DNA of 22,209 nucleotides, from NCBI GenBank assembly GCA_963780185.1, contig CAWABA010000008.1, positions 1 to 22,209 on the forward strand, in the 5' to 3' direction. Below, one piece after another: positions 1 through 16,155 of the stretch. The stretch's first letter is position 1. Every line of letters begins with the position of its first letter. This DNA comes from Candidatus Bathyarchaeota archaeon. GTDB lineage: Archaea; Thermoproteota; Bathyarchaeia; Bathyarchaeales; Bathycorpusculaceae. A program made the position numbers and the translations under genes. A model generated the notes under the pieces. It was not told where the DNA came from, made no database searches, and saw only the letters and a list, made by a program, of their open reading frames with translations.

Positions 1-83
1 GAATTCATGACAGATTCGTCCATGACCCAAAGGTTGTTGACGGAAAACAAGAATTTTGGTTCAAGCTGATAAAAACGTTGGAT

Positions 84-1230
84 TTATCTAATTCCGAATT
101 TTTCAGCCCATTCTTCGTTTAACTTTACTTCGTCGCCTGAAACCGAAGCTTTTCTGACTTGCAGCGCGTTACGAAGTCGCTTCTGGTTACGGGTCTTGGG
201 ATGCCGCTGTCAAGGTTGTTCTGCTGGTTAAGCTCATGGATCGGGATGTACCATGCGTCAATGCAGACTTTTTTGATGTCGTCGCCGCTGAAGCCTTCGC
301 TGAGTGTCGCAAGTTCATGCATGTTTACGTCGTCTGCAAGCTTGAGGTTAGGCATTTTCCGAAGAGAAATCTTGAACATTTCTTCCCGGGCATCCAAGTC
401 GGGCAGCGGAATCATTATGCGTTTGTCGAAGCGCCGAAGCATCGCAGAGTCAAGGCTCCACGGGCGGTTAGTGGCTCCCAACACAACTATTCTGTCGTCT
501 GCTTTACCCACTATGCCATCCATCATCTGAAGCATCTGTGTTAGAACCCGAGTAGAAACCGCAGATTCCTCGCCGGTTCTCTCCATCGCCCAGCGAGTCA
601 ACTTCATCAATGAAAATTATCGAGGGCTGATTTTTCCGCGCCGACTCAAACAACCCTTTGATGCGTTGCTCCGAGTCGCCGACCCATTTGATCATGACGT
701 CGGCGGCGCTTACGCTGAAGAAGGTGGCGTTGCATTCGGATGCGGCTGCTTTTGCAATCAGGGTTTTTCCGCAGCCCGGCGGACCAAACAGCAGAATCCC
801 TTTCCATGTTGGCATGCCTTTGAACAGGTCAACTCTGCGAAGGGGCAGAATAATTGCGTCTTCGATGGCTTGCTTAGCCGTCTGGAGGCCCGCGATGTCA
901 TCCCAGGAAACGTTGGGTTTCTCAGGCAAAATCATGGAGGAAACTTTGGATTGCAGCTCTTCCTCGTCTTTGTTGTCTTCTTTTGCTTGTCGCAGTTGGC
1001 GGAGGTCTTTTCGCGATGGATTTCAGTTGGTAGGCCCGCGAAAGGTATTGTTCGGCTCTTTCGGTGTAGAAGGTTTTCAACTGTTTATTGTCGGTGTATC
1101 GCACAACGGACATAAGCAGATCGAATGCCTGCAGGTACTTGCTGACTGCCTGCTCGGTTTTTCCTTCTGAATCGCATTTTGCGGCTTCGTTAGCTGCGTT
1201 CACTGCTAAATTGTACAGGGACGAGGACAA
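84..1230 (-). CDS. vps4: Vps4/CdvC-type MIT + AAA+ ATPase (~380 aa; apparent 1-nt frameshifts near 985, 590 and 170)
   Basis: Joined frames: MIT (AVNAANEAAKCDSEGKTEQAVSKYLQAFDLL...YTERAEQYLSRAYQLK); linker KDEEELQSKVSSMILPEKPNVSWDDIAGL; Walker A GPPGCGKT; pore loop KWVGDSE; Walker B IIFIDEVD; ATNRPW; LRRFDKRI; and, in another frame, the Vps4 C-terminal helix ALQVRKASVSGDEVKLNEEWAEKFGIR* ending at TAA 84-86. TTG start preceded by GGTG. Confidence 0.93.
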
Positions 1231-1264
1231 GAGCCGGCACCCATTAGCTTTAAGCTAACTCTTT

Positions 1265-1350
1265 GGGCATATAATAAATTTGTGAAACACTGGGGCAACT
1301 TAGCGCAAGCAGAAGTGCTGAGTTAGGGCAAGTTTTTTATCTTTAAGCCA
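1265..1350. promoter_or_regulatory. Divergent archaeal promoter region between vps4 and the ESCRT-III operon
   Basis: Minus-strand TTTATTATAT (~1269-1278) upstream of vps4; plus-strand TTTTTTATCTTTAAG (~1333-1347) about 20-35 nt before ATG 1369. Confidence 0.45.
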
Positions 1351-1368
1351 CCAACAATACGGTACGAG

Positions 1369-2002
1369 ATGTCACATATGCCAATAGGTGAAAAAATAAG
1401 GAACTTCGTGAAGGGCCCGCCGCTTGAAGACTTAGTCATCGACCTCAAAATGTACAACAAAGAAATCGGGCGGACACGGGACCAATACAAGAACAGGTCA
1501 ACCGCCATGTATGACCAAGCTAAAGAATGCTTGATTAAAGGTGACGATCACAGGGCAAAAATGTATGCTCAACAGTACATGAGCTGTGACAGGACAGCTT
1601 TTTCACTTGACATGTTCGTCATAAACATGGACAACCTAATCTTCGACCTTAACAATGCACAGTCAGTTGAAAACATCGGGTTAAGCCTCGGCAAAATAAG
1701 CAAATGCCTCGACAAACTAAACCTGCTTAAACAACGCGGCGTAGGCAAAGTCATGGGCAGAGTAAGCAGCCAAATGGAGAAAATCGGCTTCAAAACCGGA
1801 CAAATCTTTGACCAACTGAAAGATTACGAACCCTTCAACATTGAACCCGGCTCAGCGAAAGACCTAGACAAAAGTCATGGATAAAATGGTAAGCGAAGTC
1901 ATCGCTGAAGGACCAGCGTCAGGATTGCCCGAAGCAAAACTCACTGAGTTGCAAGCAGAAGAGGCAAGGCGTAAAAGGATCCAGCGCGGAAAGCACAAAT
2001 AG
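1369..2002 (+). CDS. ESCRT-III (Snf7-fold) protein, Vps2/24/46 (CHMP1-3)-like class, ~210 aa; one extra A at 1870-1873
   Basis: Helical hairpin with AKECLIKGDDHRAKMYAQQ, resembling the K-G-N/D-x-x-x-A-R/K-I-Y-A motif of Did2/CHMP1/CdvB. The +1 frame continues DKVMDKMVSEVIAEGPASGLPEAKLTELQAEEARRKRIQRGKHK* to TAG 2000-2002. Divergent from vps4. Confidence 0.82.
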
Positions 2003-2017
2003 TTTGAGGCGGTTGCT

Positions 2018-2614
2018 CTGTTCAAATCTAAGGATGATAACAAAAGAGATCTGTTGGATGCTTTAGATTTAGAAATAGAGGAACACACCAAGAAAAGCAG
2101 GGCACTAAAAGAGGAAAGCGCTAAAAACAAGGAAAAAGCCGCTGAGCTTGCTGAAGAAGACATGGATGACGCGGCGAAACGTCGGCTCGCAGTCTATTTG
2201 CTGTGTAGACAGTTGAGGACTAGAGAGGAAACGGTGATGGCTGATTTGGATGCGGCGCGGCTTCAGGTTATTATGCAGCCGGAGCACCTGACTTCTCAAA
2301 CAATCGACAAAGTCAACAAAGCACTTAAGGAGTCGGCGACTGAAAAAGACAAAACCGCGCAGGCATTCAACCGAATGTCATTCATAACCCAAGTGGGCAT
2401 GGAGCAGTCAGCAAGCGAACTTGAAGACTTCGGAATCCACCAGAAAAGCATAAACGAAGAATTTGAAAAACTCAAGGGAAAACAGGAGCCACCCGCTCCC
2501 AAAGCAAAGCCTCAGCCAATCGGCGAAAACGAGTTGCCCGAAGTCCCCGCCAAAGAGCCAGAGAAAAAGCAGGCGACGGAGGAAGAAAGGATTCCTGAAA
2601 AAGGTTTTAGCTAA
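2018..2614 (+). CDS. ESCRT-III protein, Vps20/32/60 (CHMP4-6)-like class, with a C-terminal MIM2 motif
   Basis: Charged helical protein (KEKAAELAEEDMDDAAKRRLAVY...ADLDAARLQV...SINEEFEKL), then a Pro-rich tail containing ELPEVP (2531-2548). Frame is open back to 2003; GAGG at ~2006 suggests a start near CTG 2018 (FKSKDDNK), while the ORF track starts at TTG 2054. Confidence 0.72.
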   Translation: MFKSKDDNKRDLLDALDLEIEEHTKKSRALKEESAKNKEKAAELAEEDMDDAAKRRLAVYLLCRQLRTREETVMADLDAARLQVIMQPEHLTSQTIDKVNKALKESATEKDKTAQAFNRMSFITQVGMEQSASELEDFGIHQKSINEEFEKLKGKQEPPAPKAKPQPIGENELPEVPAKEPEKKQATEEERIPEKGFS

Positions 2615-2615
2615 A

Positions 2616-3100
2616 TTGAGCGAGAACCTGACTGGCTCGAAAAACCATGGGTCTACACCAAACCCAAAGGTGAAGAAGCAGTTGCAAAGTGGAGAGAAAA
2701 CTGGAGTCGATTACGTTTTAGCGTTCGCGGAAAAAAAAAACATTTACGCGATAAGCCGGTTCGGATCTGCACCGCGAAAGCCCATTTCTGCAAACTCGAC
2801 CAAGCATCATTCGAGGACATAGTTGACTGCTTAATCACAGTAAACAGGCGAAGTGGCGAAGCAAACGTGGAAAAATGCTGGTGATATGCTGGCGTTCCCT
2901 GACAAGTGGGCGGACTTGACGGTTCAATTGGCAAAAGAAAAGAAGCAGCCGATAATCAACGGATCAAACGGACTCGTCGAATTGCATCCGCAAACCGATG
3001 CTTGCCAGAGAAAGAGCAGCAGCAAATCCTCAAACTCATCGTGAAGAAGAAAGCGGGTCACTGGGTTGACAAGAAAAAACTGGCTTTGCGGCTGAATTAA
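2616..3100 (+). CDS. vps25: ESCRT-II Vps25-like tandem winged-helix protein (~160 aa; several frameshifts, not intact in the ORF track)
   Basis: Joined frames: EPDWLEKPWVYTKPKGEEAVAKWRENW-DYVLAFAEKKNIYAIS-DLHRE-PFCKLDQASFEDIVDCLI-SKQAKWRSKRGKMLVICWRS-DKWADLTVQLAKE...LPEKEQQQILKLIVKKKAGHWVDKKKLALRLN*. This follows the Vps25 pattern WxxxVLxF / PF...L / W......IxWRxxxxW. Confidence 0.8.
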
Positions 3101-3104
3101 GTTT

Positions 3105-3728
3105 TTACGCGAGTTTCGTCGGCTCAGTAATTCCAGTCAAATCGATTGAAATTAAGTCAAGCCCAAGCCTGTACAGTTCGTTGAACAGTCGGGGCCTGAC
3201 TTGTTGGCTAATGAGTTCTTCCCGGTCGATCAGCAGGAACTCCTTGAAAGTCATGTTTTTCGCAATGTCGCGGAAAACGCTGAAACCAGCGGTCCCTCCC
3301 TAAGCCACTCCACCAGTTGTTCCCGAGTGAAACTGTTTTTGCCGCCACCACACGGGAAATGAATTGGGCGACGTTTTTCTCCATGTCCCCGTTTACCCTA
3401 AGCGTCGATCGTTCCGCTAAGCCCGATTTGGTAGCCGTCTTTCGTTATGGGACCGTGGTTTTTGGGGATTCCGAAGGCTTCCTGCCGCGGGCTAATATCA
3501 ACCCAGATTATTTCGTTGGTTCCTTTGGCAGCAGATGTTTTCCCGAAGAGCGAACACTCTCCATCGTGCCGCCCTTGTAAAAAATGGCTTTCTCAAATTC
3601 CTTGACGACGACTGCGCTTACGCCGCTTATCTTCGGGATATTTTTCGTTTGGGACATGCCAAATCAGCTCAGACGGAACGCGTCGGATTGCGTTCCCAAC
3701 TGACCACTTTTTTTCTGAACGGGCACAT
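3105..3728 (-). CDS. SPFH/Band-7 domain protein, YdjI-like (~205 aa; several frameshifts, missed by the ORF track)
   Basis: Joined frames: MCPFRKKVVSWER...PSELIWHVPNEKYPED-SGVSAVVVKEFEKAIFYKGG...GKHLLPK-TNEIIWVDISPRQEAFGIPKNHGPITKDGYQIGLSGT-TLRVNGD...FISRVV-GKNSFTREQLVEWLREGPLVSAF-RDIAKNMTFKEFLLIDREELISQQVRPRLFNELYRLGLDLISIDLTGITEPTKLA*. ATG at 3728, TAA at 3105-3107. Confidence 0.75.
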
Positions 3729-3829
3729 ACGGTAACCTACTTATGCTTGTATTAATCATTAATGGAAATTGCTTCAACAGGGTAACTTGTAACGTAGGGT
3801 TTAAGCCGCGGCTGTTTCCCGTCCGCCGT

Positions 3830-4923
3830 CTAGACACGCTAAATTTGCTTGGGAAATACCACCGTGTGATTGAGTCGTCGCCGATGACGCGCTTCGAAGT
3901 CTCAGTTTTCTCCATGTTACAGAGCACTCGCCGCGAATAGTCAACGGACCAGCCGTTGAGTAACGCAAGTTCTTCAGCCGTAACGCCGCCTTTTTGAAGC
4001 TTCACGTCTTTATCGACGATTTCTAGGGCTTTGCGGTCATCCAGCTTGAAAATCACGATTTTGTTTCCGTCAGGTTCACGTTCCACCCCTGAAATCCACC
4101 CGTCCTTCTGCAGCAAACTCAGGGATTTCTCCATGTCTTCCAACTGTATGCTGGTTAAGTCGGGATTGAGGTTTCGGTACTCGGCGAAGAACTCTTTAAG
4201 CCCAATGTAGGGTCCTTTCTGCTCTTCGATGGCGCGCGCCGCCAGCAGGGTTCGCACCCCGATTTTGCGGTAGTACTGCCCATGCTTGAGGGGGCTTTTC
4301 TTTTCGCTGTCCACAGACAACGCATACAAGCCACGCTTTTCACGGCTTTGTACATGTCTGGGTTTTCAGTCTCCAGAATCCGCAGAAGCTGGTTAAGAGG
4401 AACCTCAACGGCTAAAGAGCGGATGTGGGCGACGCGGTCGATATTGCGGAACTCATCCGTAAGCTTCGTGAGGAAAGCAAGTGCCGCTTCACTGTTGGGT
4501 TCAGCGCCAGCGGGGAACATGTCTCTTGTAGCTTCACTGACCGCGAAACATTTGGTAAGCAGAAGCGAATCAATGTACGCCAGCCCCTTTGGGTCCGTGT
4601 TCTTTTTGATTTCGAAATGCTGCGAGAACGTGATTGAGTCCCTCAGCCGCTCAAGAGCCTCCCTGCAGCTATGCAGCTTAGCTAAGAAGCTCTTTGTCGC
4701 CGCCTCGAAAAGCCACGTTTATGGCGAACGAGAGTTCTTGGTCGAGGCTGCTGATTTCGGAGACGGCTTGCACGATGGTGGCTTTGTCGTAGGTTTCCAG
4801 TTCTTTGGCGTTGGTCGGCATCCCGACCAGGTAGGCGCCAGCTTTCGTTGCGGCTTTTGTTGAGACGCTTATGGCGGCGCTTTGCCCCAACTGTTGAGCC
4901 CACCATGCAAGAGCAGCAATCAT
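3830..4923 (-). CDS. ESCRT-II Vps22/Vps36-like (EAP30 domain) protein with a ~190-aa N-terminal helical domain (~360 aa; frameshifts near 4680 and 4330, probably also near 3835)
   Basis: Track ORFs 4678-4923, 4155-4520 and 3664-4329 join into one protein. C-terminal half YYRKIGVRTLLAARAIEEQKGPYIGLKEFF...IQLEDMEKSLSLLQKDG...GGVTAEELALLNGWSVDYSRRVLCNMEK...TRWYFPSKF matches the EAP30 double winged helix. Likely stop is TAG 3830-3832, one indel out of frame. Confidence 0.78.
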
Positions 4924-5102
4924 GGCGTTTTCACATCAGGTAACTTGGGGAGTACCCCTTTTAAGGTTTAGTGTCAATCGACCGCTGGCAGAAGGCGGAG
5001 AAAGTTTTCTGGTCTCTGGAGGGGCTGAAGCGGACGCATGAATGTATGAAAAAGCATTTATGCGCTTAGACATCACACATAGTAGCATTTGGGGTTGCGG
5101 TA

Positions 5103-7272
5103 TTGATAATCAAAAGCATCAGCGACATGGCTAAACAGATGAATGTTGATGAGTCAGCCGTGTACAACGAGTTAGACCCAGTCATAGCCCGCCTGCAAAA
5201 CACAGGAGCCAAATACTTCCTCAGTCGGCAGCCAAACGGCGGCGGCAAACTGCTAATTGTAACGGCGGGGGACATCGCGTATGTTTTGTCAGGCGCCAAC
5301 ATGCGTTCGCTTATGGATTTGGGGACTCATTTCAGCGTCACCGCAGGCGACGTGGCTTGGCTGCTAAGAGAGCTGGTTGCCAGCGGCGCAGTCGGCGTTG
5401 AAGTTCAAGATTACTACATGAACGCGAAGAACAGGCCGTCGGTTAAAGCGTGGTTTGAGCCTGAAGCGGTGATAGTCGGCGAAAAAGCCACCTTAAACAT
5501 CGAAGTTAACAGTCCATGCGAAGTCCTCGAACCCAAAATCACTGTTGAGGCGCCGTCGGGGCTAGAGCTTGAAGAGGAACCTAAGACGCCGTCGAAGATT
5601 TTCAAGGGCACATTCATGGAGAAATACGAGTTCGCCGCCAACGCTTACGGAGACCTCAAAGTAGGCGGAGGCCTGGGCGGAACCGTGGACGGCGTCGAAT
5701 TCGACAACCCCTTCTACTCTGTACTCAAGGTGCTGCCGCTGCCTCCGCAGACTGGTGGTTTCGCAGAGCAAAAGCAGCTACGAAGCAACCTATCAGGGGT
5801 CGTTTAGGCTGACGCTTGACATCGCCAACAGCGGAGCTGGAGCCGCCCAAAACGTGGAACTTAAAGGCTTAGAGAACCACCCAGAGTTTGAAGTTTGGGA
5901 AACCACCAAGATAGGCAACATCTCATCGCATGGAAGCGTCAAACACATGATAGCGCTTAAGCCCAAGAAAAGCGGCATCTTCCAGCTGCAGGACCTCTCC
6001 GTGAGCTTTGAAGACCTCGCAGGGAAACCGTTCAGCACAGCTATTCCCAGCTTTGAAGTGCAGGTGACTACGCCGCAGCCTAAACTCAAAGTGGAATTCA
6101 TCTACCCCGAAGTCATCGACCAAAAACGGGTTTTCCCGCTTACCCTCAAAATCAGCAACGTCGGCGACGGCGACGCCAAAAACGTCACGTTCACGTTGCC
6201 CATCGACCACAAGTACATACAGTCAGGCATCGTCGACTGCAACATACCAAAACTGAAAAGCAACCAAACCGAAGAACTCATCGTTAGACTGCAGGCACCT
6301 GAAAGAGATGTGCTGGAAGTCCCCGACTTAAACGTTGAATACGACGACAACGAAGACAACACAATCGCCCAAAAAGTGTTCGGCGCCGTGATTCCTATCC
6401 GCGCCTCAAAAACAGCGGAGAAACCTGTGGTCAGAGACGAGTTTTCCAAGTTGCAGTGGCCGTTCACCCAGAACGCACGCGTCGGCGGGCAATACGACAT
6501 CGTGGAGGAAATCGGCGAAGGAGGATTCGCCAAAGTCTACCGTGTCAGACGCCTCAAATTCAACGAGGAATGGGCGCTGAAAGCGCTGAAGCTGGATTAC
6601 GTGACGGTGCCCTCTGTGGAGGAAAGCTTCGTGGAGGAGGCAAGAATCTCGCAGAAGCTGCGGGAAGACCACATCGTCGGCGTTCAATACGTGGATGTCC
6701 AATGCGTAGGCGACGTCGAGTTCCCCTACATCATAATGGAGTACATCCGAGGCGGCACGCTTAAGGACAAGCTTAAGGAGCCGCTGGACCTTATGACCTG
6801 CGCCGAAATCATGAAGGACATGTGCAGCGCGCTGCTCTACGCGCACCAGCAAGGCGTCATACACTTTGACGTTAAACCCTCCAACATCTTCTACGACGAC
6901 GACAAACAATTCTGGAAACTCGGCGACTTCGGCTTAGCCAAATACATAACGACCAGCAACAACATTTCCCCGCGGGGCAGCCTACCCTACATGGCGCCCG
7001 AGGTGAAGCAGAGGCGGGGAACATCCAAAAGCGACATTTACTCGCTGGGACGGGTCTGCGCAGAAATCCTCACGGGAAGCCCAGACGGCGACGTCTCCAA
7101 AGCCGACAAAAGCTACCCGCGGGAAGCCCAGCAGAAAGTACGCGAGTTCACAGGCATCGTACAGAAAATGTTGAACCCCAACCCAGCCGAGCGCCCGACC
7201 ATCGTTGAAATACAAAAGGTGTTCCTTAAGTCAACCACTTGGTCAAGCAACGAAAAAAGAAGAGCGATCTGA
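5103..7272 (+). CDS. Hanks-type Ser/Thr kinase with N-terminal winged-helix (PCI-like) region and three Ig-like (CARDB/BatD-type) domains (~720 aa; frameshift near 5750)
   Basis: Kinase motifs GEGGFAKV, ALK, HFDVKPSN, DFG, GSLPYMAPE, DIYSLG, RPT. Ig repeats LTLDIANSGAGAAQNV and LTLKISNVGDGDAKNV. ORFs 5103-5807 and 5755-7272 join at ...VLPLPP-LVVSQS...; no signal peptide or TM helix seen. Confidence 0.88.
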
Positions 7273-7278
7273 TAAAAG

Positions 7279-7821
7279 TTGACTGACACCTTCACATTGA
7301 GAAAACGGCAGACCACCTGCAGCGAATGCTCAAGCGAAATAGAAATCCCCATAACCTCAACAGCCACACGCATCAAATGCAAATGCGGCGTAGTCTACGA
7401 GTACAACCCTGCCGTAGAGCTTCTGCCCTACTTGATGTTGCAGGAGGAAAACAAGCCGCCGTCCGAGTACCGTTTAACGGCAAGCGTGAAAATCGGGCGG
7501 GAAGACAACAGCGACTACCTCACCATAACCAGCCAAGATGACCCCTCCATAAAACAGAAGTTTTACATAAGAAACTGCTACGTCTCCCGAAACCACGCGA
7601 AAATAGCCGTAGAGGACCAGTTCACCCTCCAAAAGCAGGGCGGCGCCAAGATACTGTTAAAAAAGAAATGCATGCTGGAAGACTGCGGCAGCACAAACGG
7701 CACCTCCGTGAACGACCACCTCCTCAAACCCCGCGAGCCAAAAGAGCTTAAACACAACGACCGCATCACGTTGGCGCCCAACAGCAACTTCCCAATGATA
7801 ATCGCCTTCAAAGAACGCTGA
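7279..7821 (+). CDS. Zn-ribbon + FHA (phosphothreonine-binding) domain protein
   Basis: N-terminal CSEC...CKC; FHA signatures IGR, VSRNHA and LEDCGSTNGTSVN; starts 6 nt after the kinase stop. Confidence 0.9.
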   Translation: MTDTFTLRKRQTTCSECSSEIEIPITSTATRIKCKCGVVYEYNPAVELLPYLMLQEENKPPSEYRLTASVKIGREDNSDYLTITSQDDPSIKQKFYIRNCYVSRNHAKIAVEDQFTLQKQGGAKILLKKKCMLEDCGSTNGTSVNDHLLKPREPKELKHNDRITLAPNSNFPMIIAFKER

Positions 7822-7835
7822 AAACCGCGCCGCCG

Positions 7836-9029
7836 CTACTTCGCAAGCAACGCTTCAATGTTCTTGCGCAAGCCGTTCTTAGAGAAGAATTTTTCTCCAT
7901 CCAAAGTCAAGTATCCCACGACGCTGTTGCGGCGCATGCCGTGCAGCAGAAACTTCTTTGTAAGGCCCAAACTTAACCCGAGGTTGGACGCCAAATCAAC
8001 CAGCGGAACCTCGTCTTTTTCGCTGAGCACCTGCAGCATTTTCTTTTCGGTTTCCGCTACGAAGTCTTTTGCAGCGGGGTCACCTACCGCGTCAAGGTCG
8101 CTTGCCTCAAGCATCTCGATTAAGGCGCGTCTAGCCCTAGACAGCGCCAAACGCGGGGTTGCAAAAGCAGCGGCGATTCCGCCGTGACCCAGAAGCAACG
8201 TAGCTATGCCCAGCAGCAACATGCCGTAGCCCAAGTAGTTTTCGATGGAAACCGTAGCCCACACGTTGGCGATGTCTAACCCAGCGATGGAGACGCCTAC
8301 CGCGAAGGCGATAACCCAGAGGCTGCGGAACAACCATTTTTCCTGAAGCAAAAGAGGCTTAGCCGACTTAAGCTTCACAACGTACTCTTTAACGACGATG
8401 CTGACGACTGCGAAGACGCCGAAGCTGATAACGAACACGCCCGCCAACATCACGGCAAACCCAACGTAGTTCGCCACGGTTTGCGTTGCCCACTCGCCCG
8501 CCGTCACGGAACCCAGCAAGAACATGGCAACCCCTGCGGTTACAGCCAGAATCTTGTTCAGCATTGAAAACCCGTGTTTGCTACCTACAACGTAGGTGGT
8601 GATGAGCCCAACTGTGCCCACGACTGCGGCGGCTAACCCGAACATCGTCAGCCCGTAGCCAAGGTAGTTTTCAACCGTGAATTTAGCCCAGTTTGCGTTT
8701 GCCGCTGAACCCACCAAAGCCACAGCAACTCCAGCGGCGAAGATGTGCAGGTTTTGGAACAGTTTCTGCTGGGGAACCTCGATGAAGCGAGGCGGCAGCC
8801 ACCTTGGGGTTCTTCGCTCTCTGGCTAAGATTGTTTTGAAGACGCCTTCAACCAACCAGAACGCGCCTAAAACGAGCAGGATTGTTCCAGCAGATTGGAC
8901 GCCGAAGCCCACGTAGTTTAGGGTGGTGTAGTAATAGTTGTTTTTGAAGAGGTATGACCCTGCAGCCGAGAAAACTATGCCTGCGACTAAGGCGTATAAA
9001 CCGTTAAGCAGGGTCTTTTGCAGTTTCAA
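7836..9029 (-). CDS. Multi-pass membrane protein (four repeated TM hairpins) with a C-terminal PCI-like winged-helix domain
   Basis: About 8 hydrophobic segments; motif T/S-x-x-NY-[LV]-G-[FY] occurs four times; soluble tail MLQVLSEKDEVPLVDLASNLGLSLGLTKKFLLHGMRRNSVVGYLTLDGEKFFS. Confidence 0.75.
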   Translation of the reverse strand: MKLQKTLLNGLYALVAGIVFSAAGSYLFKNNYYYTTLNYVGFGVQSAGTILLVLGAFWLVEGVFKTILARERRTPRWLPPRFIEVPQQKLFQNLHIFAAGVAVALVGSAANANWAKFTVENYLGYGLTMFGLAAAVVGTVGLITTYVVGSKHGFSMLNKILAVTAGVAMFLLGSVTAGEWATQTVANYVGFAVMLAGVFVISFGVFAVVSIVVKEYVVKLKSAKPLLLQEKWLFRSLWVIAFAVGVSIAGLDIANVWATVSIENYLGYGMLLLGIATLLLGHGGIAAAFATPRLALSRARRALIEMLEASDLDAVGDPAAKDFVAETEKKMLQVLSEKDEVPLVDLASNLGLSLGLTKKFLLHGMRRNSVVGYLTLDGEKFFSKNGLRKNIEALLAK

Positions 9030-9053
9030 GGCTTTTACTCACTCATCCCTCTG

Positions 9054-10583
9054 TTAACGCTTGAGTGTATGAAACTCTATACATATAACGTTTAAGTGAA
9101 AAACCTCGTCGTGGGCGGGTTCAGGCAAAAACCTCTTCAGGCGGCGAGTAACAAAAACAGCGATTACGATTATCCACCCCACCGCCAGAGCAACCGCCAC
9201 AACTTCAGCCGCCCCAAGTATGGTCTGTTCCACGGAGCCAACTGAACGGGTAGTTGAGCCGCCGCTGGCTGCGCTCTTGGTTGGGGTAGGCGTCGGCTGG
9301 TTTTGCTGAATAATTGGGGTGCTTGTCGGTGTCGCTGTAGCTTGGATCGGGGTGACGTTTGACTGGGAAGGAGACCAATTGATTGTCCACTGGGTTGACG
9401 GCGCCGCAGAATTTGGCTGCGCCAGAATCGGCAGGTAAGTGACTGTTCCCAGATTATAGTTGTATTTGGAGTCGTAGATTGACTGGCTAATGGCTTGGGT
9501 GTCCGGGGTGCCCCACCAGTTGTTAGCGGCGTTAACTGCGCCCTGAGCGTTCTGCAGGCAAATGCTGTTGCTAACGTAATTTTCCAAGTTGTTGTTGCTT
9601 ACAGTGCATGGATCATCCAGCGCAATTGACACGTTGCAATAAACGATGGTGTTGCCTTGGATGGTGACGCCGCTGCTTGCCTCAATCCCAGCAGTTGAAC
9701 AGTTGTAAACCAAATTGTTTTCGACAGTAATCGTTTTCCCAAGGTAGCTCCCCACGTCAATGCCCGTTTCACAGTTAACTACGGTGTTACCTGAAATTAC
9801 CATGCCATCTTCGTCGGCTCCACCTGTTATCCCATTGCTGTAGTAGCTGACCCCGAAGTCGTAGTAGTTGCCGGGGTAGCCTGGACCGATTATTTGGTTG
9901 CCGTTGACTGAGGGGAAGCCGCCGTCTATGTAAACGCCTTTTGTGACAACGTTGCTTTGGATTGTGGGGGTTCCGCCTGTGACTGTGACACGCGATATTG
10001 TGTTGCCGCTAACCTCAGGTGACCCCGCCGCCACAGTAAGCCCTATTATGTATGAGTAGTATCCGTCGCCGAACAAGTTGCCTGTTATGACTGGGGAGCC
10101 GCTGTAGACCTTTATACCGCCGACTTTTACTTCGTCGTCGACGGTTATCGGGTTGCCAACTCTGTTGGAGTCAATTTTCGGCGAAACACCAGTTATTTTG
10201 ATGAGGTAGAGCCCGTCTGTGTGCTCGATTATGGAGCCTGAACCTGCGCTTTGGCTCCAGCTGCTGCTTGAAGGCATAAAGTCAACTTCGCCTCCGCCCT
10301 GAAAGGTAATCGGGTTAGAATCGGTTCCTAACGCCTGAAATGTCCCGTTGACTTGAAGAATGTAGCCGTTGAAGTTCACTGTGGCACCAGCCTCAACGGT
10401 TAGAGTTGCCCCGCGGTTAACTGCGACAGGCCCGTTGATGTTGTAGGGGCTGCTCTCCGCGGTCCAGGTGGTGTCGGAGTTGATTATGCCGTTGAAAACA
10501 GTGGACGCCATAGCCATGTCACGCAGCGGCAAGGCACATAGCGCAAGAGCAATCAACAGAGCAACAGGCAAAGCCTTGTTCAT
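9054..10583 (-). CDS. Secreted right-handed parallel beta-helix (NosD/pectin-lyase-like) surface protein with C-terminal membrane anchor; paralog 1
   Basis: Signal peptide; DTTWTAESSPY N-cap; repeated IxxNxI beta-helix rungs; NNWWGTPD...SIYDSK; Thr/Pro-rich linker; TM followed by RRLKR. The true stop may be slightly earlier (~9121) if there is an indel. Confidence 0.85.
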   Translation of the reverse strand: MNKALPVALLIALALCALPLRDMAMASTVFNGIINSDTTWTAESSPYNINGPVAVNRGATLTVEAGATVNFNGYILQVNGTFQALGTDSNPITFQGGGEVDFMPSSSSWSQSAGSGSIIEHTDGLYLIKITGVSPKIDSNRVGNPITVDDEVKVGGIKVYSGSPVITGNLFGDGYYSYIIGLTVAAGSPEVSGNTISRVTVTGGTPTIQSNVVTKGVYIDGGFPSVNGNQIIGPGYPGNYYDFGVSYYSNGITGGADEDGMVISGNTVVNCETGIDVGSYLGKTITVENNLVYNCSTAGIEASSGVTIQGNTIVYCNVSIALDDPCTVSNNNLENYVSNSICLQNAQGAVNAANNWWGTPDTQAISQSIYDSKYNYNLGTVTYLPILAQPNSAAPSTQWTINWSPSQSNVTPIQATATPTSTPIIQQNQPTPTPTKSAASGGSTTRSVGSVEQTILGAAEVVAVALAVGWIIVIAVFVTRRLKRFLPEPAHDEVFHLNVICIEFHTLKR

Positions 10584-10624
10584 GCAACCACCCGCTCACC
10601 TATGGCGCAGTTTGGTTTAATAGG

Positions 10625-11983
10625 TTACGCTTTTTGGCTGCTTTTCGTTTTCAGCCGCCGCCTAACAAACACAACTATCACAACAGCCCAAGCAAACGCC
10701 AAGGCAACGGGCACAATTTTTGCAAGCTGCAGGATAACGGATTCAACCGAGTTCTCTGGACCCGACGAGCCAGCGCCGATAGAGTTTTGCCACTGGTTAG
10801 GCGTAAGAGTAGGCGTGGCTGTTGGATGAAAGGTGGCAGTGGATTGGGGGGAAGTTGTTTGAGGCGTGGGCGTAGGTAAGGTTACGGGCACAAGCGGGCT
10901 GGACGGAGCCTCGGAACTGGGCTGGTTCAGGATTGGAGTGTATGTTACTGTTCCCAAGGTGAAGTCGCTTTTCGAGTCGTAGATTGATTGGCTTATAGCT
11001 TGAGTGTCTGTGGTACCCCACCAGTTGCCAGATGCATCCACATTAGAGCTGCCCGTCAAGTAGACGCTGTATTGGGTGTTCCCGTAAATGTTGTTGTGTA
11101 CGATAGACGCTGAACCCGCACATTGGATTCCTACCTTGTTGCCTGTTATAGTGTTGCCCTCAACTGTCCCACCGCCAACAGAGATTCCGCATTTATTATT
11201 CGCAACGTAGTTCTGCTGAATCACTGCTGAACCCAAACTTTGAATCGCCACGTCAACACAGTTGATAACCGTGTTCCCATTGAACGTTGCTTGCCCATTT
11301 AATATAACTGAAATCCAACCCCCATTAACGACGTTGTTTGATAAAGAGGCGCTATCTCCCGCAGTGACCACATAAGTCCACCTAGTCGTGTCGAACTGGT
11401 TATTCGTAACTTTAGAGCCCCCGTTTGCCAAAATGGCGCCACTTATGGGTGGATTGTCCACCACGTTATCCGAAATTAAGGGAGACCCGCTTACGATATT
11501 TATCGATGTGTCAACTGTGTTGTTAAAAGTGTCCCTGCTGATTTTCGGGGAGCATCCTTGGATGGAAACCGAGGCGGTTTGGAAAAAAGCGTTCTCTATA
11601 ATACTTCCTGATGCTGTTTGTTCATTCCAACTTGTGCTGGAAGGCATGAATTCGATGGTGGGATTGCACTGGCTCGTATATTGAATAGGAGAGAGAAAGA
11701 CAATATTATTGTCACTCGTTCCCTGGGCTATGAGTGTGCCGTTGATTTCCATGTAGTATCCTGCAAGATCAACGGTTGTTCCCGGCGCAATAGTCAAAGT
11801 TACCCCCGCCACCACTCCAACCGCACCAGTCAGCGTATAGGGACTACCCGCAGACGCCCAAACCGTGTCAGAAGTTACCAACCCGCCAACGCTTGTGGAA
11901 GCATGAACATTGCTCACGTAAGCAGATCCGCACAGGATCAAAACAACCATCAGAGAGGCGGAAACCAGTTTTTTCATGTACAA
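10625..11983 (-). CDS. Secreted beta-helix surface protein with C-terminal membrane anchor; paralog 2
   Basis: Signal peptide ending VHA; DTVWASAGSPY; beta-helix rungs; GNWWGTTD...SIYDSK; TPTP linker; TM followed by RRRLK. Confidence 0.88.
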   Translation of the reverse strand: MYMKKLVSASLMVVLILCGSAYVSNVHASTSVGGLVTSDTVWASAGSPYTLTGAVGVVAGVTLTIAPGTTVDLAGYYMEINGTLIAQGTSDNNIVFLSPIQYTSQCNPTIEFMPSSTSWNEQTASGSIIENAFFQTASVSIQGCSPKISRDTFNNTVDTSINIVSGSPLISDNVVDNPPISGAILANGGSKVTNNQFDTTRWTYVVTAGDSASLSNNVVNGGWISVILNGQATFNGNTVINCVDVAIQSLGSAVIQQNYVANNKCGISVGGGTVEGNTITGNKVGIQCAGSASIVHNNIYGNTQYSVYLTGSSNVDASGNWWGTTDTQAISQSIYDSKSDFTLGTVTYTPILNQPSSEAPSSPLVPVTLPTPTPQTTSPQSTATFHPTATPTLTPNQWQNSIGAGSSGPENSVESVILQLAKIVPVALAFAWAVVIVVFVRRRLKTKSSQKA

Positions 11984-12015
11984 TCCTTACATATTTGGAC
12001 ATTTGGTTTAAGAGC

Positions 12016-13416
12016 TTACTGCTTACCGCGTGCTTTTCGCTTTAGCCGGCGCCTGACCACGACAAAGATAACGATTGCCCATCCAACTGCGAGGACAATT
12101 GGCACCGTTTCTGCAAGCTTCAGGATGACGGATTCAGTGGAGTTTTCTGGACCGGAAGAGGAACTGCCGATGGAGGATAGCCAACCTTGGGTTGAAGTCG
12201 GCTGAACATGCAGCGTGGGAGTTGCGGTTGTAGCTGGCTGGTTAGTTGGATTGGTGGTTGTTGAAGATTGAGTGAGGGTGTTCAAGTTGACGAGCGGGGT
12301 TGAAGGCGCCTGCGAATCAGCTTGACTTAGGATTGGGTTGAAGGTTACGGTACCCAAGTTGAAATCGTCTTTGTTATCGTAAATTGATGCCTTAATCGAT
12401 GTGCTGTCGGTTGTTCCCCACCAGTTATCGGTTGCGTCAACGTTCAAAGGCGAGGTAAGATAGATGCTGTTTTGGGTGCTTCCTTGAATGTTGTTACTTT
12501 TGATGGTTATGGAAAAGTCGGATGTGCTAATCCCTGCAGGTGACTTTATCCCGACATTGTTGTTTATTATAGCGTTGTGTCGAATAACTCCGATGCCAGT
12601 CACCCCAAAACCATTATTGGACATATAATTTTGCTCGATAATTACCGATGCACTATTTGATGCTACGGCAGCATCTTTACAATTCGTAATCGTATTTCCT
12701 GTTATCTTCGCTTCGCCGGAAGCCTGGATGCCTTGCCAACAATTGTTTACAACATTGTTTTCCACTGATGCGTTCTCAGACACCTGCATCCCGTAGATGA
12801 AGGGAGAGGAATCATGGACGAAATTGTTTGAAATAATTGGGGAACCTGCGGCAATGATGGCGCTTCCTCCGCTTCCAGCTGAGATGTCGTTGTTCACTAT
12901 CGAGGGGGATCCACTTAAAACGTTCAGGGGAGACTGAGATGGGTGAGTAAAAGTGTCACGGGTTATTTCAGGGGAGCAACCAAGTATTGAGACGCTCGTT
13001 GCGTTAAAAACCGAATTTTCAATCACGCATCCTGAAGCCGTAGGAGGATACCAACTTGTGCTTGAGGGCAAGAATTGAATTTGAAATTTCGTCTGAGACT
13101 GATAGGCAGAGGCAGCATCAGTTGAAAAAAATATGTTACTACTGCTTGTTCCTTGGGCGTCGAGGGTGCCGTTAACCTGCAGGTAGTAGATACCAAAGTC
13201 AACCTCAACTCCTGGTACTATGGTTAAAGTTACGCCTGCTTCCACGCCTACGGGTCCTATTAGCTTGTAGGGGCTGTCTGCTTGGGTCCAAGTGGTGTTT
13301 GAAGTCATCAATCCGCCGACGTTTGTAGAAGCATGAACATTGCCCATGTTGCCTGCTAATAAGAAACAGCCAAACAACGCCATTAGCAACAGGATCGGGC
13401 AAGCAAGCTTCTTCAC
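12016..13416 (-). CDS. Secreted beta-helix surface protein with C-terminal membrane anchor; paralog 3
   Basis: GTG start; signal peptide ending VHA; NTTWTQADSPY; DNWWGTTD...SIYDNK; Thr-rich linker; TM followed by RRRLKRK. Confidence 0.88.
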   Translation of the reverse strand: MKKLACPILLLMALFGCFLLAGNMGNVHASTNVGGLMTSNTTWTQADSPYKLIGPVGVEAGVTLTIVPGVEVDFGIYYLQVNGTLDAQGTSSSNIFFSTDAASAYQSQTKFQIQFLPSSTSWYPPTASGCVIENSVFNATSVSILGCSPEITRDTFTHPSQSPLNVLSGSPSIVNNDISAGSGGSAIIAAGSPIISNNFVHDSSPFIYGMQVSENASVENNVVNNCWQGIQASGEAKITGNTITNCKDAAVASNSASVIIEQNYMSNNGFGVTGIGVIRHNAIINNNVGIKSPAGISTSDFSITIKSNNIQGSTQNSIYLTSPLNVDATDNWWGTTDSTSIKASIYDNKDDFNLGTVTFNPILSQADSQAPSTPLVNLNTLTQSSTTTNPTNQPATTATPTLHVQPTSTQGWLSSIGSSSSGPENSTESVILKLAETVPIVLAVGWAIVIFVVVRRRLKRKARGKQ

Positions 13417-13516: not shown

Positions 13517-13735
13517 CTAACGCGTAACCTCATGGTCGGGTTCAACTTTGACAGTGACATCTGATCCCTTTATTCCAGCCAAGGACGGAAGAATATGGGA
13601 AATGAATTGTTCCGCGGTGCATGGGCGAACGGTGCCGTTTTGGCTGTATTCTTTCCAGCCGTCCTCCTCTTTTCGGAACTTCTGAAGCCATTTATCCTTG
13701 AACATGATGTAGATTGTGCATTCTGAATTCTTCAT
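13517..13735 (-). CDS. Small hypothetical protein (72 aa)
   Basis: GAGG ribosome-binding site before ATG; protein-like composition; co-oriented with its neighbours. Confidence 0.6.
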   Translation of the reverse strand: MKNSECTIYIMFKDKWLQKFRKEEDGWKEYSQNGTVRPCTAEQFISHILPSLAGIKGSDVTVKVEPDHEVTR

Positions 13736-13773
13736 GATTATTCCTCTTGAAACGGGAAGCCGTGAGATTTGGT

Positions 13774-14361
13774 TTATTGTGCGGTTCTTCTTGCTCCGCA
13801 GTTTGGGCAGGTTAGCGTGGTTTCAGGCATTTCTGTTTGGCAGTATTGGCATGCGACAAGACGCACTTTTGGCGGTTCATTTTGGGGTCTTTCGCTTGGC
13901 GGGATGACCTGTAAGATGGTTTCTTTGGTGGTTACGTCGGGTCTTCCGTGGACGGCGACGACGCCTTTGATTTCCCACTGGACCGTGTCTTCTGCAGACA
14001 TGTAGGTTGGACGGGCTCCGGCGGGAAGGGGGATGCTGAATTTGAAATTTTGGCTGACACCGTTTGTGAGGGCGATGGCTGGGTTGCATTGGGGTTTTGC
14101 TTGGTAGAGAACCAGATTTTCGGTTACTTGCCGATTGACTACCATTTTGAGGGCGGGGTCGTACTCGGTTTTCATGACCTTTACGGTTTCAGCGCATTTG
14201 ATTTCGCAGCGGATTTCGTCTGACGCTATGTCTTCGTGCGGCGTAACGGTGAGTGTTCCTTCCAAGTTGTCACCTAAGACGGCGTATTGGTCTTGGAGTT
14301 GCAGGTTGACGTCGGCTTTTGGCGCAACTAAGTGGCCTTCAAGTTTTTTAAGAAAGCCCAT
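13774..14361 (-). CDS. Arrestin-N/SpoOM-like beta-sandwich protein with C-terminal Zn ribbon
   Basis: LGDNLEGTLTV...FKFSIPLPAGARPTY...VQWEIKGVVAVHGRPDV is typical of the arrestin/SpoOM fold; CQYC...CPNCG at the C-terminus; minus-strand TATA-like TTTTAAG near 14391-14397. Confidence 0.72.
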   Translation of the reverse strand: MGFLKKLEGHLVAPKADVNLQLQDQYAVLGDNLEGTLTVTPHEDIASDEIRCEIKCAETVKVMKTEYDPALKMVVNRQVTENLVLYQAKPQCNPAIALTNGVSQNFKFSIPLPAGARPTYMSAEDTVQWEIKGVVAVHGRPDVTTKETILQVIPPSERPQNEPPKVRLVACQYCQTEMPETTLTCPNCGARRTAQ

Positions 14362-14446
14362 GGGTACCGCATGATACTGTGAGCCGAGCGCTTAAAACCT
14401 TTTAGGAATTCTGGATTATACAATAAACCCCTAAAACAATGGGAAA

Positions 14447-15218: not shown

Positions 15219-15253
15219 AGCGTGAGCATGCACTTAAGAGGATGAATTGACCT

Positions 15254-16136: not shown

Positions 16137-16155
16137 ATGTTAACCCCATGTTTGG

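Follow-up and report, generated by a model that had tools for sequence, protein, structure and literature searches.

A second, Asgard/eukaryote-like ESCRT module in Bathyarchaeia

Components of ESCRT-II are usually credited to Asgard archaea and eukaryotes only. The window analyzed here, a contig of 22,209 nucleotides from a genome that an earlier note judged not to look Asgard, codes near its left end for both ESCRT-II subunit types together with ESCRT-III proteins and a Vps4 ATPase, raising the question of whether these genes belong to their host and, if so, where they came from. We read positions 84 to 4923 as the core of a nine-gene ESCRT module that has long been resident in Bathyarchaeia and whose frame breaks are assembly errors, and we give this joint reading a probability of about 75%. 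The named members are MIT-Vps4, ESCRT-III a, ESCRT-III b, Vps25, an EAP30 protein, an SPFH protein, a CARDB-repeat Ser/Thr kinase, and an FHA protein. The module is a second, Asgard/eukaryote-like ESCRT machine, alongside the host's own CdvB/CdvC division system, and a literature search found no published account of it in Bathyarchaeia.

Gene content of the module

The window is organized as follows, G000 being its genome bin and C9 that bin's contig treated as the main chromosome.

1-66, no strand: left end of the contig, its homologue on the main chromosome lying upstream of hdrC
84-1230, minus: Vps4 (MIT-AAA-Vps4_C ATPase) in four frame pieces; TTG start, TAA stop at 84-86
1369 to about 2000 (2002), plus: ESCRT-III a (CHMP1/Vps2-24-46-like), Snf7 match; breaks near 1870 and 1955
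about 2006 to 2614, plus: ESCRT-III b (divergent paralogue), C-terminal LPEVP motif; no frame break
2615-3100, plus: Vps25 (ESCRT-II, tandem winged helix), matches relatives' profile; six frame breaks
3120-3719, minus: SPFH/Band-7 protein, by alignment to an intact relative; six frame breaks
3802-4923, minus: EAP30, Vps22/36-like ESCRT-II subunit (PF04157); two breaks, true C-terminal end uncertain
5103-7272, plus: Ser/Thr kinase with CARDB/Ig-like repeats, by tblastn to a G517 protein; one frame break near 5750
7279-7821, plus: FHA-domain protein (FHA, 51.2 bits)
7836-13416, minus: four tandem secreted beta-helix/NosD-like paralogues (Beta_helix/NosD matches)
13517-14361, minus: conserved small ORF and arrestin-like/zinc-ribbon gene, a genus-typical chromosomal anchor

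All five gene types named in the earlier note (MIT-Vps4, two ESCRT-III, Vps25, and EAP30) are present, and the SPFH/Band-7 gene, absent from its list, is a sixth within 84-4923. Vps4 matches the Pfam MIT (PF04212, 49.1 bits), AAA, and AAA lid families and is collinear with an intact 380-aa relative in a frameshift-aware alignment (284/379 identical, no stops, and three breaks, near 1002, 587, and 168, the last a 1-nt deletion relative to same-genus genome G047); Vps4_C scores 25.5 to 29.4 bits in the relatives. In a Vps4 tree with an unresolved backbone and no labelled Asgard Vps4, the window protein is sister to that of the same-family genome G517 (support 100), and the two fall within an 11-row clade (support 100) apart from a 22-row CdvC clade (support 100). 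Across three genomes, divergence of the cluster Vps4 (77.4% identity for G000-G517, 59.5% for G000-G341, and 60.9% for G517-G341) tracks that of the native CdvC (81.8%, 57.1%, and 56.5%, respectively).

The Vps25 and EAP30 homologies proposed earlier are upheld by profile searches, with PF05871 matched in the relatives and PF04157 in the window itself. Intact relatives of Vps25 score 35.6 to 44.3 bits against PF05871 (cut-off, 27), and their own profile finds the window gene in three frame pieces (45.8, 35.1, and 21.7 bits); aligned to an intact relative it has 63/158 identities, no stops, and breaks at about 2705, 2760, 2794, 2838, 2903, and 2998. Searched with the Bathyarchaeial Vps25 profile, the solved Odinarchaeota protein (7pb9_A) gives an E value of 1.7e-29 and human VPS25 one of 1.8e-5, and the G517 protein alone matches the Odinarchaeota structure at 74.6 bits (E, 7.6e-20). 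EAP30 scores 37.7 bits against PF04157 (cut-off, 26.8), and two type-A relatives fall below that cut-off, at 23.7 and 20.6 bits. It is organized as a helical N-terminal part of about 210 residues followed by two winged helices and is 288/373 identical to relative P0002, with frame breaks near 4680-4687 and 4327. The EAP30 profile has no sequence match in the PDB, and the AF2 model of P0002 (pLDDT, 86.5) places the protein next to human and yeast VPS22/VPS36, the top Foldseek matches being human VPS22 (1.6e-5) and VPS36 (4.8e-4), with a VIA Z of 10.8 over 146 residues against VPS36 (3cuq_B). Structural comparison gave no match between the helical N-terminal part and a steadiness box.

The two ESCRT-III proteins differ in how securely they are classified. 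ESCRT-III a scores 19.4 bits for Snf7 in the window and 26.8 to 27.3 bits in intact relatives (cut-off, 27.3), is 148/207 identical to a relative with two frame breaks, and in PDB profile searches matches CHMP1B best (6.2e-8), followed by CHMP1A (2.5e-6) and CdvB (1.1e-5). ESCRT-III b has no match in Pfam and none by PDB sequence search, although it aligns with the ESCRT-III a profile at 87.4% probability (hhalign E, 3.7e-6). It is 109/197 identical to a relative, has no frame break and no canonical start codon upstream of TTG 2054, and carries a conserved C-terminal LPEVP motif with P169 and P172 invariant in the alignment of relatives. Its AF2 model has helices at 8-45 and 49-85 and then a disordered tail, and it superposes on the Snf7 core 5fd9_A (Z 9.3, rmsd 1.1 Å, 79 residues), a match that unrelated helical proteins exceed. 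The earlier description of a two-class ESCRT-III pair is borne out in part: ESCRT-III a has its CHMP1B and CHMP1A matches, and the class of ESCRT-III b rests on the LPEVP motif and non-specific fold matches.

Among the remaining genes, SPFH is 82/195 identical to an intact relative, with breaks at about 3671, 3637, 3524, 3403, 3332, and 3285, and Band_7 scores 61 and 40.3 bits in relatives. The kinase gene has NCBIfam kinase matches and codes for an N-terminal region, CARDB/Ig-like repeats, and a C-terminal kinase domain; its two tblastn pieces (5115-5750 and 5749-7263, 47% and 56% identity) match one 728-aa G517 protein, which scores 134.7 bits for Pkinase and 43.1 bits for CARDB. The FHA gene adjoins the kinase gene in both G000 and G517, where the orthologue is 46% identical (FHA, 39.7 bits). 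Whether the beta-helix/NosD-like paralogues, a region with internal 131-nt repeats, belong to the module is uncertain; in G517 a 1163-aa beta-helix protein flanks Vps4.

Host identity and integrity of the locus

In line with the impression of the earlier note, the host is not an Asgard archaeon. At 60 to 90% identity, all five loci matching the flanking arrestin-like/zinc-ribbon gene are titled Candidatus Bathyarchaeota or Bathyarchaeia archaeon; G000 carries a native CdvB/CdvC locus, its CdvC on C9 scoring 522.8 bits in the same search that gave the window Vps4 pieces 144, 103, and 29 bits; and composition is host-like, the tetranucleotide correlation of 84-4923 with the rest of the genome being r = 0.885 (equal-length null mean 0.868, sd 0.116). 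The module occupies a variable site, with hdrCB on one side and the small-ORF/arrestin-like gene pair on the other; this pair is 79 to 86% identical in many same-genus genomes. Window positions 1 to 24 are 100% identical to C9 positions 42534-42557, just upstream of HdrC, and pieces of the window between 4573 and 12633 recur at 100% identity in six short public-run contigs. Since the 0.9 kb shared with the main chromosome (C9 positions 39885-40780) is only 93.7% identical, the ESCRT contig probably comes not from the population behind most of G000 but from a second one, a close relative that fell into the same bin.

Frameshift-aware alignment to intact relatives shows 19 single-base frame breaks in 4.85 kb (Vps4, 3; ESCRT-III a, 2; ESCRT-III b, 0; Vps25, 6; SPFH, 6; EAP30, 2), a feature absent from the earlier note that leaves five of the six genes not intact. 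They are modelled as 11 extra and 8 missing bases. The total of 19 to 20 lies within the leftmost 5.8 kb; beyond it the contig is clean, as is most of the genome, which makes such a patch of error unusual. No in-frame stop occurs in about 1,500 aligned codons, and the extra base at 4687 is missing from a short public-run contig that otherwise shows 100% identity across 167 nt, although this is the sole break of the 19 compared with independent reads and the run may be the source sample itself. For these two reasons the breaks look like errors of assembly, one base each, at a contig end with poor coverage rather than gene decay. A public contig of 89% identity also lacks 1 nt at 1874, in ESCRT-III a, and 8 of the 10 listed differences from it are at third codon positions, taking the start as 1378.

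Two other accounts would make the locus less than it appears. Were the breaks real mutations, the cluster would be a decaying pseudogene array in a lineage losing the system, as G047 did; the breaks are concentrated in the ESCRT genes with intact genes downstream, they show no enrichment in homopolymers, and 119 of the 120 genomes of the genus are without the locus. We consider this improbable, because, beyond the missing stops and the clean public contig, Vps4, ESCRT-III a, and EAP30 keep 71 to 77% identity to relatives, all breaks are of 1 nt with no larger deletions, and similar 1-nt deletions occur in the essential RPA gene on C9. The other account, an Asgard ESCRT fragment that was misbinned or became fused to Bathyarchaeial DNA during assembly or binning, draws on the shortness of the 22-kb contig, bin contamination of 3%, the position of the ESCRT genes at a contig end, and their presence in no other same-genus genome, but it retains very little probability and is already largely refuted. 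In the independent genome G047 the small ORF directly adjoins what is left of Vps4, an in-frame stretch of its last ~42 codons (window 67-204 matches at 79% identity), and this is a deletion scar at the same locus; in G517 the complete module is unbroken and lies 1.0 Mb into a 1.68-Mb contig, with the kinase and FHA genes likewise adjoining the ESCRT genes; and both the left-end match to the main chromosome and the tetranucleotide composition argue against a join. The chimeric contig that the earlier note wished to see excluded is thus ruled against.

Distribution and origin

The module is found in 1 of 120 genomes of the genus, 9 of 401 genomes of the class, in three families (f1, f52, and f56), and none of 400 other genomes in a phylum-wide sample; PF04157 reaches its cut-off in 1 of 201 phylum-sampled genomes, which is G000. 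Intact, conserved copies recur in a minority of Bathyarchaeia scattered over at least three families, so the module is no product of assembly or binning and has long resided in the class. In G517 and G329 the cluster has the same GC content as its flanks, and carrier loci range from 36 to 64% GC. The sparse distribution fits lateral spread as well as it does vertical descent with loss.

How the module entered the class is a separate matter. Of the two alternatives in the earlier note, an older origin of ESCRT-II and horizontal transfer, both are plausible, now for a module shared by several families and not for an isolated case. An ancestor of some Bathyarchaeia may have taken ESCRT-II, ESCRT-III, and Vps4 from a sediment-sharing Asgard archaeon, followed by vertical and lateral spread in the class, and we place this a little short of even odds. 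The closer match of Vps25 to its Odinarchaeota than to its human counterpart favors it, as do the orientation of Vps25, co-directed with the ESCRT-III genes as in Asgard loci described in part of one study (PMC10936438), the sparse distribution, and the restriction of ESCRT-II to Asgard archaea and eukaryotes in surveys covered by another (PMC9192718). However, cluster Vps4 divergence follows that of native CdvC, and where Asgard loci typically carry ESCRT-I and ubiquitin genes, type A has SPFH, kinase, and FHA genes; since composition fits the host fully in all carriers compared, any transfer must be old. This alternative agrees with the preferred reading on the identity of the locus and differs only on its source. 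Carriage of the module by a mobile element moving among Bathyarchaeia would account for its patchiness. The spot is variable, with two secreted-protein genes on C9 and nothing in G047; at 14.4 kb the locus is abutted by a low-GC element that carries an integrase-like gene of 520 aa and is common to five genus genomes at 67 to 73% identity; flanking contexts in G000 and G517 are unlike; and the loci of low-GC relatives add HerA-like ATPase and zinc-ribbon genes. Yet no integrase, att repeat, or replication gene was found within 1-13.5 kb, the G517 neighbors are ABC-transporter and Mg-chelatase-like genes, a viral contig collection gave no matches, and composition is host-like, and we regard mobile cargo as unlikely.

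Relationship to known ESCRT systems

Like the Asgard loci in the portions of two studies that describe them (Hatano et al. 2022, PMC9192718; Makarova et al. 2024, PMC10936438), the module codes for a tandem-winged-helix Vps25, two ESCRT-III paralogues, an MIT-Vps4 with Vps4_C, and an EAP30 protein of the Vps22/36 type whose N terminus is extended by a helical part; Vps22 of the Asgard loci is described there as a steadiness-box fusion. It differs in that its host is a member of the Bathyarchaeia with CdvB/CdvC too, in that type A is without ESCRT-I (Vps23/UEV, Vps28) and ubiquitin genes, in its fixed SPFH, CARDB-repeat kinase, and FHA members, and in a pore-loop-2 "arginine collar" with two of three arginines in type A. 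The TACK Cdv system (CdvA/CdvB/CdvC), present in the same genomes, likewise combines ESCRT-III-family proteins with an MIT-AAA Vps4-family ATPase, but the cluster Vps4 is only 41 to 47% identical to the same-genome CdvC, falls in a clade of its own with full support, and has a pore loop 2 one residue longer than that of the native CdvC; the cluster also includes ESCRT-II genes, and its ESCRT-III proteins are 188 to 227 aa, with no C-terminal winged helix in the ESCRT-III b model.

The euryarchaeal "Main," "Halo_FHA," and "Meth_adaptin" systems, as outlined in part of PMC10936438, also link Vps4/ESCRT-III with Ig-repeat Ser/Thr kinases, FHA, and SPFH, although their ESCRT-II-like winged-helix parts are recognized there by structural similarity or HHpred, whereas Vps25 and EAP30 here pass Pfam cut-offs; their Vps4 proteins form other clades in the tree of that study. 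Eukaryotic ESCRT-II (VPS22/VPS36/VPS25; PDB 3CUQ and 1U5T) shares the tandem winged-helix cores, with the EAP30 model closest to human VPS22/VPS36, but the module is without a GLUE/PH domain, type A has a single EAP30-type gene, and sequence similarity is low, as the human VPS25 and PDB searches above illustrate.

Proposed role of the module

By homology, the Vps22-like protein and Vps25 would form an ESCRT-II-like adaptor on a membrane patch that SPFH may help mark; Vps25 would nucleate ESCRT-III b, which would recruit ESCRT-III a, and MIT-Vps4 would remodel and remove the polymer such that the membrane is cut or repaired, with the kinase and FHA protein gating the process by phosphorylation. 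A predicted complex weakly suggests that Vps25 contacts ESCRT-III b (ipSAE 0.49, best control 0.00; partner pLDDT at least 77; runs agreeing in at least 94% of contacts). Of 80 solved complexes, 58 reach the mark applied, as do 2 of 110 mismatched pairs; scores of 0.60 or less account for 7 of the 80 and both mismatches. Because the Vps25-Vps20 complex has already been solved, the pass may reflect what the predictor learned from that structure. As Cdv is present for division, a role other than division is likely, and the module probably serves in vesicle budding, membrane repair, or a virus-related process.

An ESCRT module in a Bathyarchaeial genome

The ESCRT module at 84-4923 is genuine and rare, resembles those of Asgard archaea, and belongs to Bathyarchaeia; its copy in the window is damaged by assembly errors. 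The ESCRT-II, ESCRT-III, and Vps4 genes that an earlier note had placed here hold up against Pfam, PDB-profile, and intact-relative matches. The longest reading frame in window 1-5000 is 221 aa at most, and stop-to-stop frames yield recognizable pieces, as follows.

922-1254, minus strand: MIT domain (Pfam, 49.1 bits)
504-1022, minus strand: AAA domain, first half (Pfam, profile positions 1-73)
125-616, minus strand: AAA domain, second half, and AAA lid (Pfam, profile positions 71-131)
1327-1884: Snf7 domain of ESCRT-III a (weak Pfam match, 19.4 bits)
3664-4365: EAP30 (Pfam, 37.7 bits; cut-off, 26.8)

The MIT domain and the two AAA pieces lie in differing frames, indicating one Vps4 gene spread across frames; its true C terminus, which closes with the usual helix, is read in a further frame that ends with the TAA at 84-86.

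Origin of the frame breaks

Frame breaks were counted by frameshift-aware alignment of the proteins of intact relatives to the window DNA.

Residues identical to the intact relative, and frame breaks, for each module gene in the window
Vps4: 284/379; 3 breaks
ESCRT-III a: 148/207; 2 breaks
ESCRT-III b: 109/197; 0 breaks
Vps25: 63/158; 6 breaks
SPFH: 82/195; 6 breaks
EAP30: 288/373; 2 breaks

The aligner models the breaks as 11 extra and 8 missing bases, with no enrichment at homopolymers. We think that they are not real but are assembly errors, as several observations argue together. The six aligned genes have no in-frame stops in ~1,500 codons and retain high identity to their relatives, the changes at the breaks are +/-1 only, and the breaks are confined to the first 5.8 kb from a contig end, including at least one further break in the downstream kinase gene near 5750. 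In a public run from freshwater sediment, one 167-nt contig matches window 4573-4740 exactly, save for one base fewer at 4687, which is the exact EAP30 frame-switch point; this is the only break compared with an otherwise identical contig, and the run may be the source sample. Public run X1 covers 14 of 30 bins at a depth of 1 to 4, and the 18 other breaks are outside its reach. A second public contig, 89% identical, has one base fewer at 1874, where the ESCRT-III a frame switches, and 8 of its 10 listed differences are at third codon positions (our own count from the frame of the gene). Lastly, the essential RPA gene on the main-chromosome contig C9 (G000:C9:38393-39660) is split over two frames, with single-base deletions relative to the same-genus genome G047, and assembly indel errors thus also occur outside contig C8, whose 22,209 bp make up the whole window. 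Programmed frameshifting and an alternative genetic code were both dropped as explanations for the module, since the breaks shift the frame, are not stops, and are far too numerous.

For ESCRT-III b, window 2000-2060 has no ATG or GTG where the relatives begin with GTG, and the first usual start, a TTG, comes only at 2054, within the N-terminal helix that is conserved; the missing start may be another sequence error or an unusual start. The sequence of the window copy calls for polishing, and the copy to study is the intact one of G517, a genome of the same family.

Host and chromosomal setting

The host genome, G000, is a 2.75-Mb, 13-contig archaeal genome, and the suggestion that it is Bathyarchaeia-like and not Asgard is supported by record titles, a native cdv locus, and composition. 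The right part of the window has an arrestin-like/zinc-ribbon gene, a small ORF, and a low-GC element, all shared with same-genus genomes, and the arrestin-like/zinc-ribbon gene is present in five named records, every one of which bears the title Candidatus Bathyarchaeota or Bathyarchaeia. The cdv locus contains two CdvB-like genes and a CdvC gene scoring 522.8 bits, and the composition of window 84-4923 is typical of G000.

Contig C8 matches C9 in two places, with 93.7% identity between window 13534-14430 and C9:39885-40780 and an exact match of window 1-24 to C9:42534-42557, just upstream of hdrC, indicating that C8 and C9 carry different versions of the same chromosomal spot. This spot occupies 1.75 kb with two secreted-protein genes in C9, and 13.5 kb in C8, where it holds the ESCRT module, the kinase and FHA genes, and four beta-helix genes; the 94% identity suggests that the bin may hold a second, related population. 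In G047 the small ORF is joined directly to 138 bp that are 79% identical to window 67-204 and are still in frame as the last ~42 Vps4 residues. This stretch is a deletion scar, and Vps4 was thus formerly present at this locus in the common ancestor of G047 and G000.

The four beta-helix/NosD-like secreted paralogues are in tandem at 7836-13416 and have common 131-nt repeat segments (9392, 10897, and 12297); a 1,163-aa beta-helix protein also adjoins Vps4 in G517, so the neighborhood in the window may not be due to chance. A region of genome G003 matching window 5045-6383 has only a paralogue of the kinase N terminus and no ESCRT genes nearby. This paralogue (667 aa; L154, G003:C1:358000-377900, at 8333-10333) shares 45% identity with the N-terminal and CARDB part of the G517 kinase (residues 7-454), the similarity stopping before the kinase domain. 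Window 14405-22209 has the appearance of an integrated mobile element, being a low-GC (40%) stretch with ribbon-helix-helix-like small ORFs, 86-nt direct repeats at 20415-20500 and 22124-22209 (88% identical), and a 520-aa integrase-like gene (16972-18534) that has no Pfam match and is 67 to 73% identical in five same-genus genomes. Scans of the window for tRNAs and Rfam families found nothing.

Vps4 and the native Cdv system

The window gene is predicted to encode a Vps4 with an MIT domain, one AAA domain, and a C-terminal Vps4 helix; Vps4_C scores 29.4 and 25.5 bits in relatives (cut-off, 21.3), with which the window C terminus is collinear. PDB matches of the Vps4 piece are dominated by two-domain Cdc48/p97 chains and do not rank CdvC against Vps4. 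The CdvC equivalog NF041006 gives 144, 103, and 29 bits for the window pieces versus 522.8 bits for the native gene, and the module does not qualify as a TACK Cdv system by either the CdvC equivalog or the CdvB winged helix. Makarova et al. (PMC10936438) give CdvA/B/C as the TACK systems and, for Bathyarchaea, mention only additional CdvA-like proteins.

A Vps4 tree of 58 rows that include no labeled Asgard sequences (quick IQ-TREE search, SH-aLRT support) places the window as sister to G517 (support, 100), both within an 11-row clade (support, 100) with the class carriers G341 and G571 and seven metagenome contigs. All native Bathyarchaeial CdvC proteins are in a separate, 22-row clade (support, 100), on a tree whose backbone is unresolved. 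Native CdvC and module Vps4 are both present in G517, G341, and G329 and are 41 to 47% identical within one genome; between genomes, the two proteins diverge as follows.

Identity of module Vps4 and of native CdvC between genomes
G000-G517: Vps4, 77.4%; CdvC, 81.8%
G000-G341: Vps4, 59.5%; CdvC, 57.1%
G517-G341: Vps4, 60.9%; CdvC, 56.5%

Pore-loop 2 of module Vps4 has the length found in rows bearing the eukaryotic motif, and the loop of native CdvC is one residue shorter. Two of the three collar arginines of this loop are present in modules of the window and G517 kind (type A), and all three are present in a distant kind (type B). Lu et al. describe three collar arginines for Asgard and eukaryotic Vps4, with a Bathyarchaeota CdvC serving as the TACK control. 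No locus was found with the Vps4 of metagenome contig L053 in viral_contigs.

The ESCRT-III pair

Of the two ESCRT-III classes proposed by the earlier note, two genes are indeed present and one has recognizable matches, but the class of the other finds no specific match. ESCRT-III a is borderline against Snf7 (PF03357), with relatives scoring 26.8 and 27.3 bits at a cut-off of 27.3, and its PDB profile search recovers CHMP1B (6.2e-8), CHMP1A (2.5e-6), and CdvB (1.1e-5). ESCRT-III b has no Pfam match and its profile has no meaningful PDB sequence match; hhalign pairs it with ESCRT-III a at 87.4% (E, 3.7e-6; 81 columns), and from these comparisons it appears to be a divergent paralogue. Its model aligns to Snf7 5fd9_A (Z, 9.3; rmsd, 1.1 A; 79 residues), with BAR-type helices scoring higher (Z, 11), and has no C-terminal winged helix and no Foldseek match at E of 0.001 or below. 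The C-terminal tail has a conserved LPEVP, which we take to resemble the MIM2 motif. A MIM2-type tail is linked to the Vps20/32/60 class of ESCRT-III in PMC10936438.

ESCRT-II: Vps25 and EAP30

Profile searches bear out homology to both ESCRT-II subunits, through PF05871 in relatives of Vps25 and PF04157 in the window for EAP30. Vps25 of four intact relatives scores 39.1, 43.8, 35.6, and 44.3 bits against PF05871 (gathering cut-off, 27), and the window Vps25 is collinear with these across its breaks, the relatives' profile matching the window in three pieces. This profile matches PDB 7pb9_A (E, 1.7e-29; positions 10-163), which is the Odinarchaeota Vps25 crystal structure according to Hatano et al. 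(PMC9192718), as well as 9uyv_A (3.9e-23) and human VPS25 3cuq_C (1.8e-5); these matches place the protein with the Vps25 structures already solved, as one with tandem winged helices. A predicted complex of Vps25 and ESCRT-III b has weak support (0.49 versus 0.00 for the best control), and because a like complex has already been solved, this score may simply reflect that known structure.

EAP30 proteins of two type-A relatives fall under the PF04157 cut-off, at 23.7 and 20.6 bits. P0002, the closest full-length relative of the window protein, has an AF2 model (pLDDT, 86.5; pTM, 0.81) with ~210 helical N-terminal residues followed by two winged helices, for which Foldseek ranks human VPS22 and VPS36 at positions 1 to 4; VIA aligns it to VPS36 3cuq_B (Z, 10.8; rmsd, 5.4; 146 residues) and 1u5t_B (Z, 9.3). 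The GLUE/PH domain of Vps36 is absent from the model, with the N-terminal 210 residues all helical, so the protein is Vps22-like rather than Vps36. VIA matches to the helical part (Z, 10 to 11) are generic helix bundles, with no specific steadiness-box match. The EAP30 profile A3 has no match in PDB sequences at E up to 1 and no loci in genome_contigs, metagenome_contigs, or viral_contigs, and a protein atlas search with P0005 gave no usable match.

Intact relatives and distant modules

G517 has an intact module at ~1.0 Mb of a 1.68-Mb contig, in the order FHA, kinase, SPFH, EAP30, Vps25, ESCRT-III b, ESCRT-III a, Vps4, and beta-helix gene; the EAP30-SPFH pair is inverted in the window relative to G517. 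Protein and locus searches identify intact EAP30-type relatives of 363 to 405 aa with 59 to 78% identity, and 12 metagenome contigs code for a Vps4 67 to 83% identical to the window piece, with two ESCRT-III genes and Vps25 as neighbors and, in some, a HerA-like ATPase, SPFH, and a long EAP30. Six of the metagenome contigs (L051-L055 and L060; GC, 37 to 39%) have a HerA/DUF87-type ATPase of 633 to 747 aa between Vps25 and Vps4, along with several zinc-ribbon proteins; both are missing from the window and G517, and L049 and L050 are without the ATPase.

Type-B modules are present in G361 (L145) and G329, small, GC-rich Bathyarchaeia of family f52, with a Vps4 ~44 to 46% identical to those of the window and G517. 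Their genes are Vps4, one or two ESCRT-III genes, Vps25 (44.3 bits), an SPFH-Vps25-like fusion, and two EAP30 genes (43.6 and 33.3 bits versus the PF04157 cut-off of 26.8). Directly next to the G329 cluster (L146, G329:C6:13000-32999, at 3368-12640) lie a ThiF/E1-like gene scoring 147.5 bits and a weakly scoring JAB/MPN gene, a pair that hints at coupling to a ubiquitin-like system, as in Asgard archaea. The ESCRT-I and ubiquitin genes of the Asgard ubiquitin-coupled system are not found in the window and G517 loci, where Pfam matches to either module include no Vps23/UEV, Vps28, or ubiquitin. Metagenome contig L102 (GC, 35%) has UEV/E2-like, VPS28 (58.7 bits), EAP30, and two ESCRT-III genes in a row, an arrangement reported for Asgard ESCRT-I/II loci.

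Distribution, origin, and implications

The module is sparsely distributed. The EAP30 piece is present in 1 of 120 genomes of the genus, across which DNA 1-5100 finds only the G047 scar, an AAA motif, and some weak matches of short length. EAP30 reaches the Pfam cut-off in 1 of 201 sampled phylum genomes (G000), and its profile is found in 9 of 401 genomes of the class, including G517, 2 of 71 in family f56, and 5 of 7 in f52; the Vps25 profile is in none of 400 others in an even phylum sample. The long EAP30 profile has 39 matches at E of 0.001 or below among 1.84 billion representatives. Full-text searches found no report of ESCRT-II in Bathyarchaeia, although supplements to PMC10936438 and PMC9192718 might list such genes; Hatano et al. 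2022 (PMC9192718) give only nine non-Asgard, noneukaryotic ESCRT-II matches in NR, judged to be misclassified.

Module GC equals flank GC in both G517 and G329, with carriers' loci ranging from 36 to 64% GC. Together with the Vps4 tree and the parallel Vps4 and CdvC identities, this sequence record argues for a probable long residence in the class. The origin of the module could be either very old inheritance with many losses or an old transfer from Asgard archaea followed by spread. It seems rather unlikely that ESCRT-II (Vps25 and a Vps22-like subunit), the ESCRT-III pair in its split form, and a Vps4 of eukaryote-like type are an old vertical trait of Bathyarchaeia that predates the TACK/Asgard split and was mostly lost; were this true, ESCRT-II would not be an Asgard innovation and the G047 scar would be loss in progress.

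ESCRT-II serves as a eukaryotic signature tying eukaryotes to Asgard archaea, and the same parts are present here in chromosome-scale Bathyarchaeia contigs, beside normal Cdv and in at least three families, with the scar recording one loss. The fixed partnership with SPFH, kinase, and FHA genes suggests a regulatory layer, which is testable. Bathyarchaeia provide a second, independent lineage for asking what ESCRT-II does in a prokaryote and how it is linked to ESCRT-III where ESCRT-I and ubiquitin are absent, and they bear on whether ESCRT-II predates Asgard archaea or traveled out of them.
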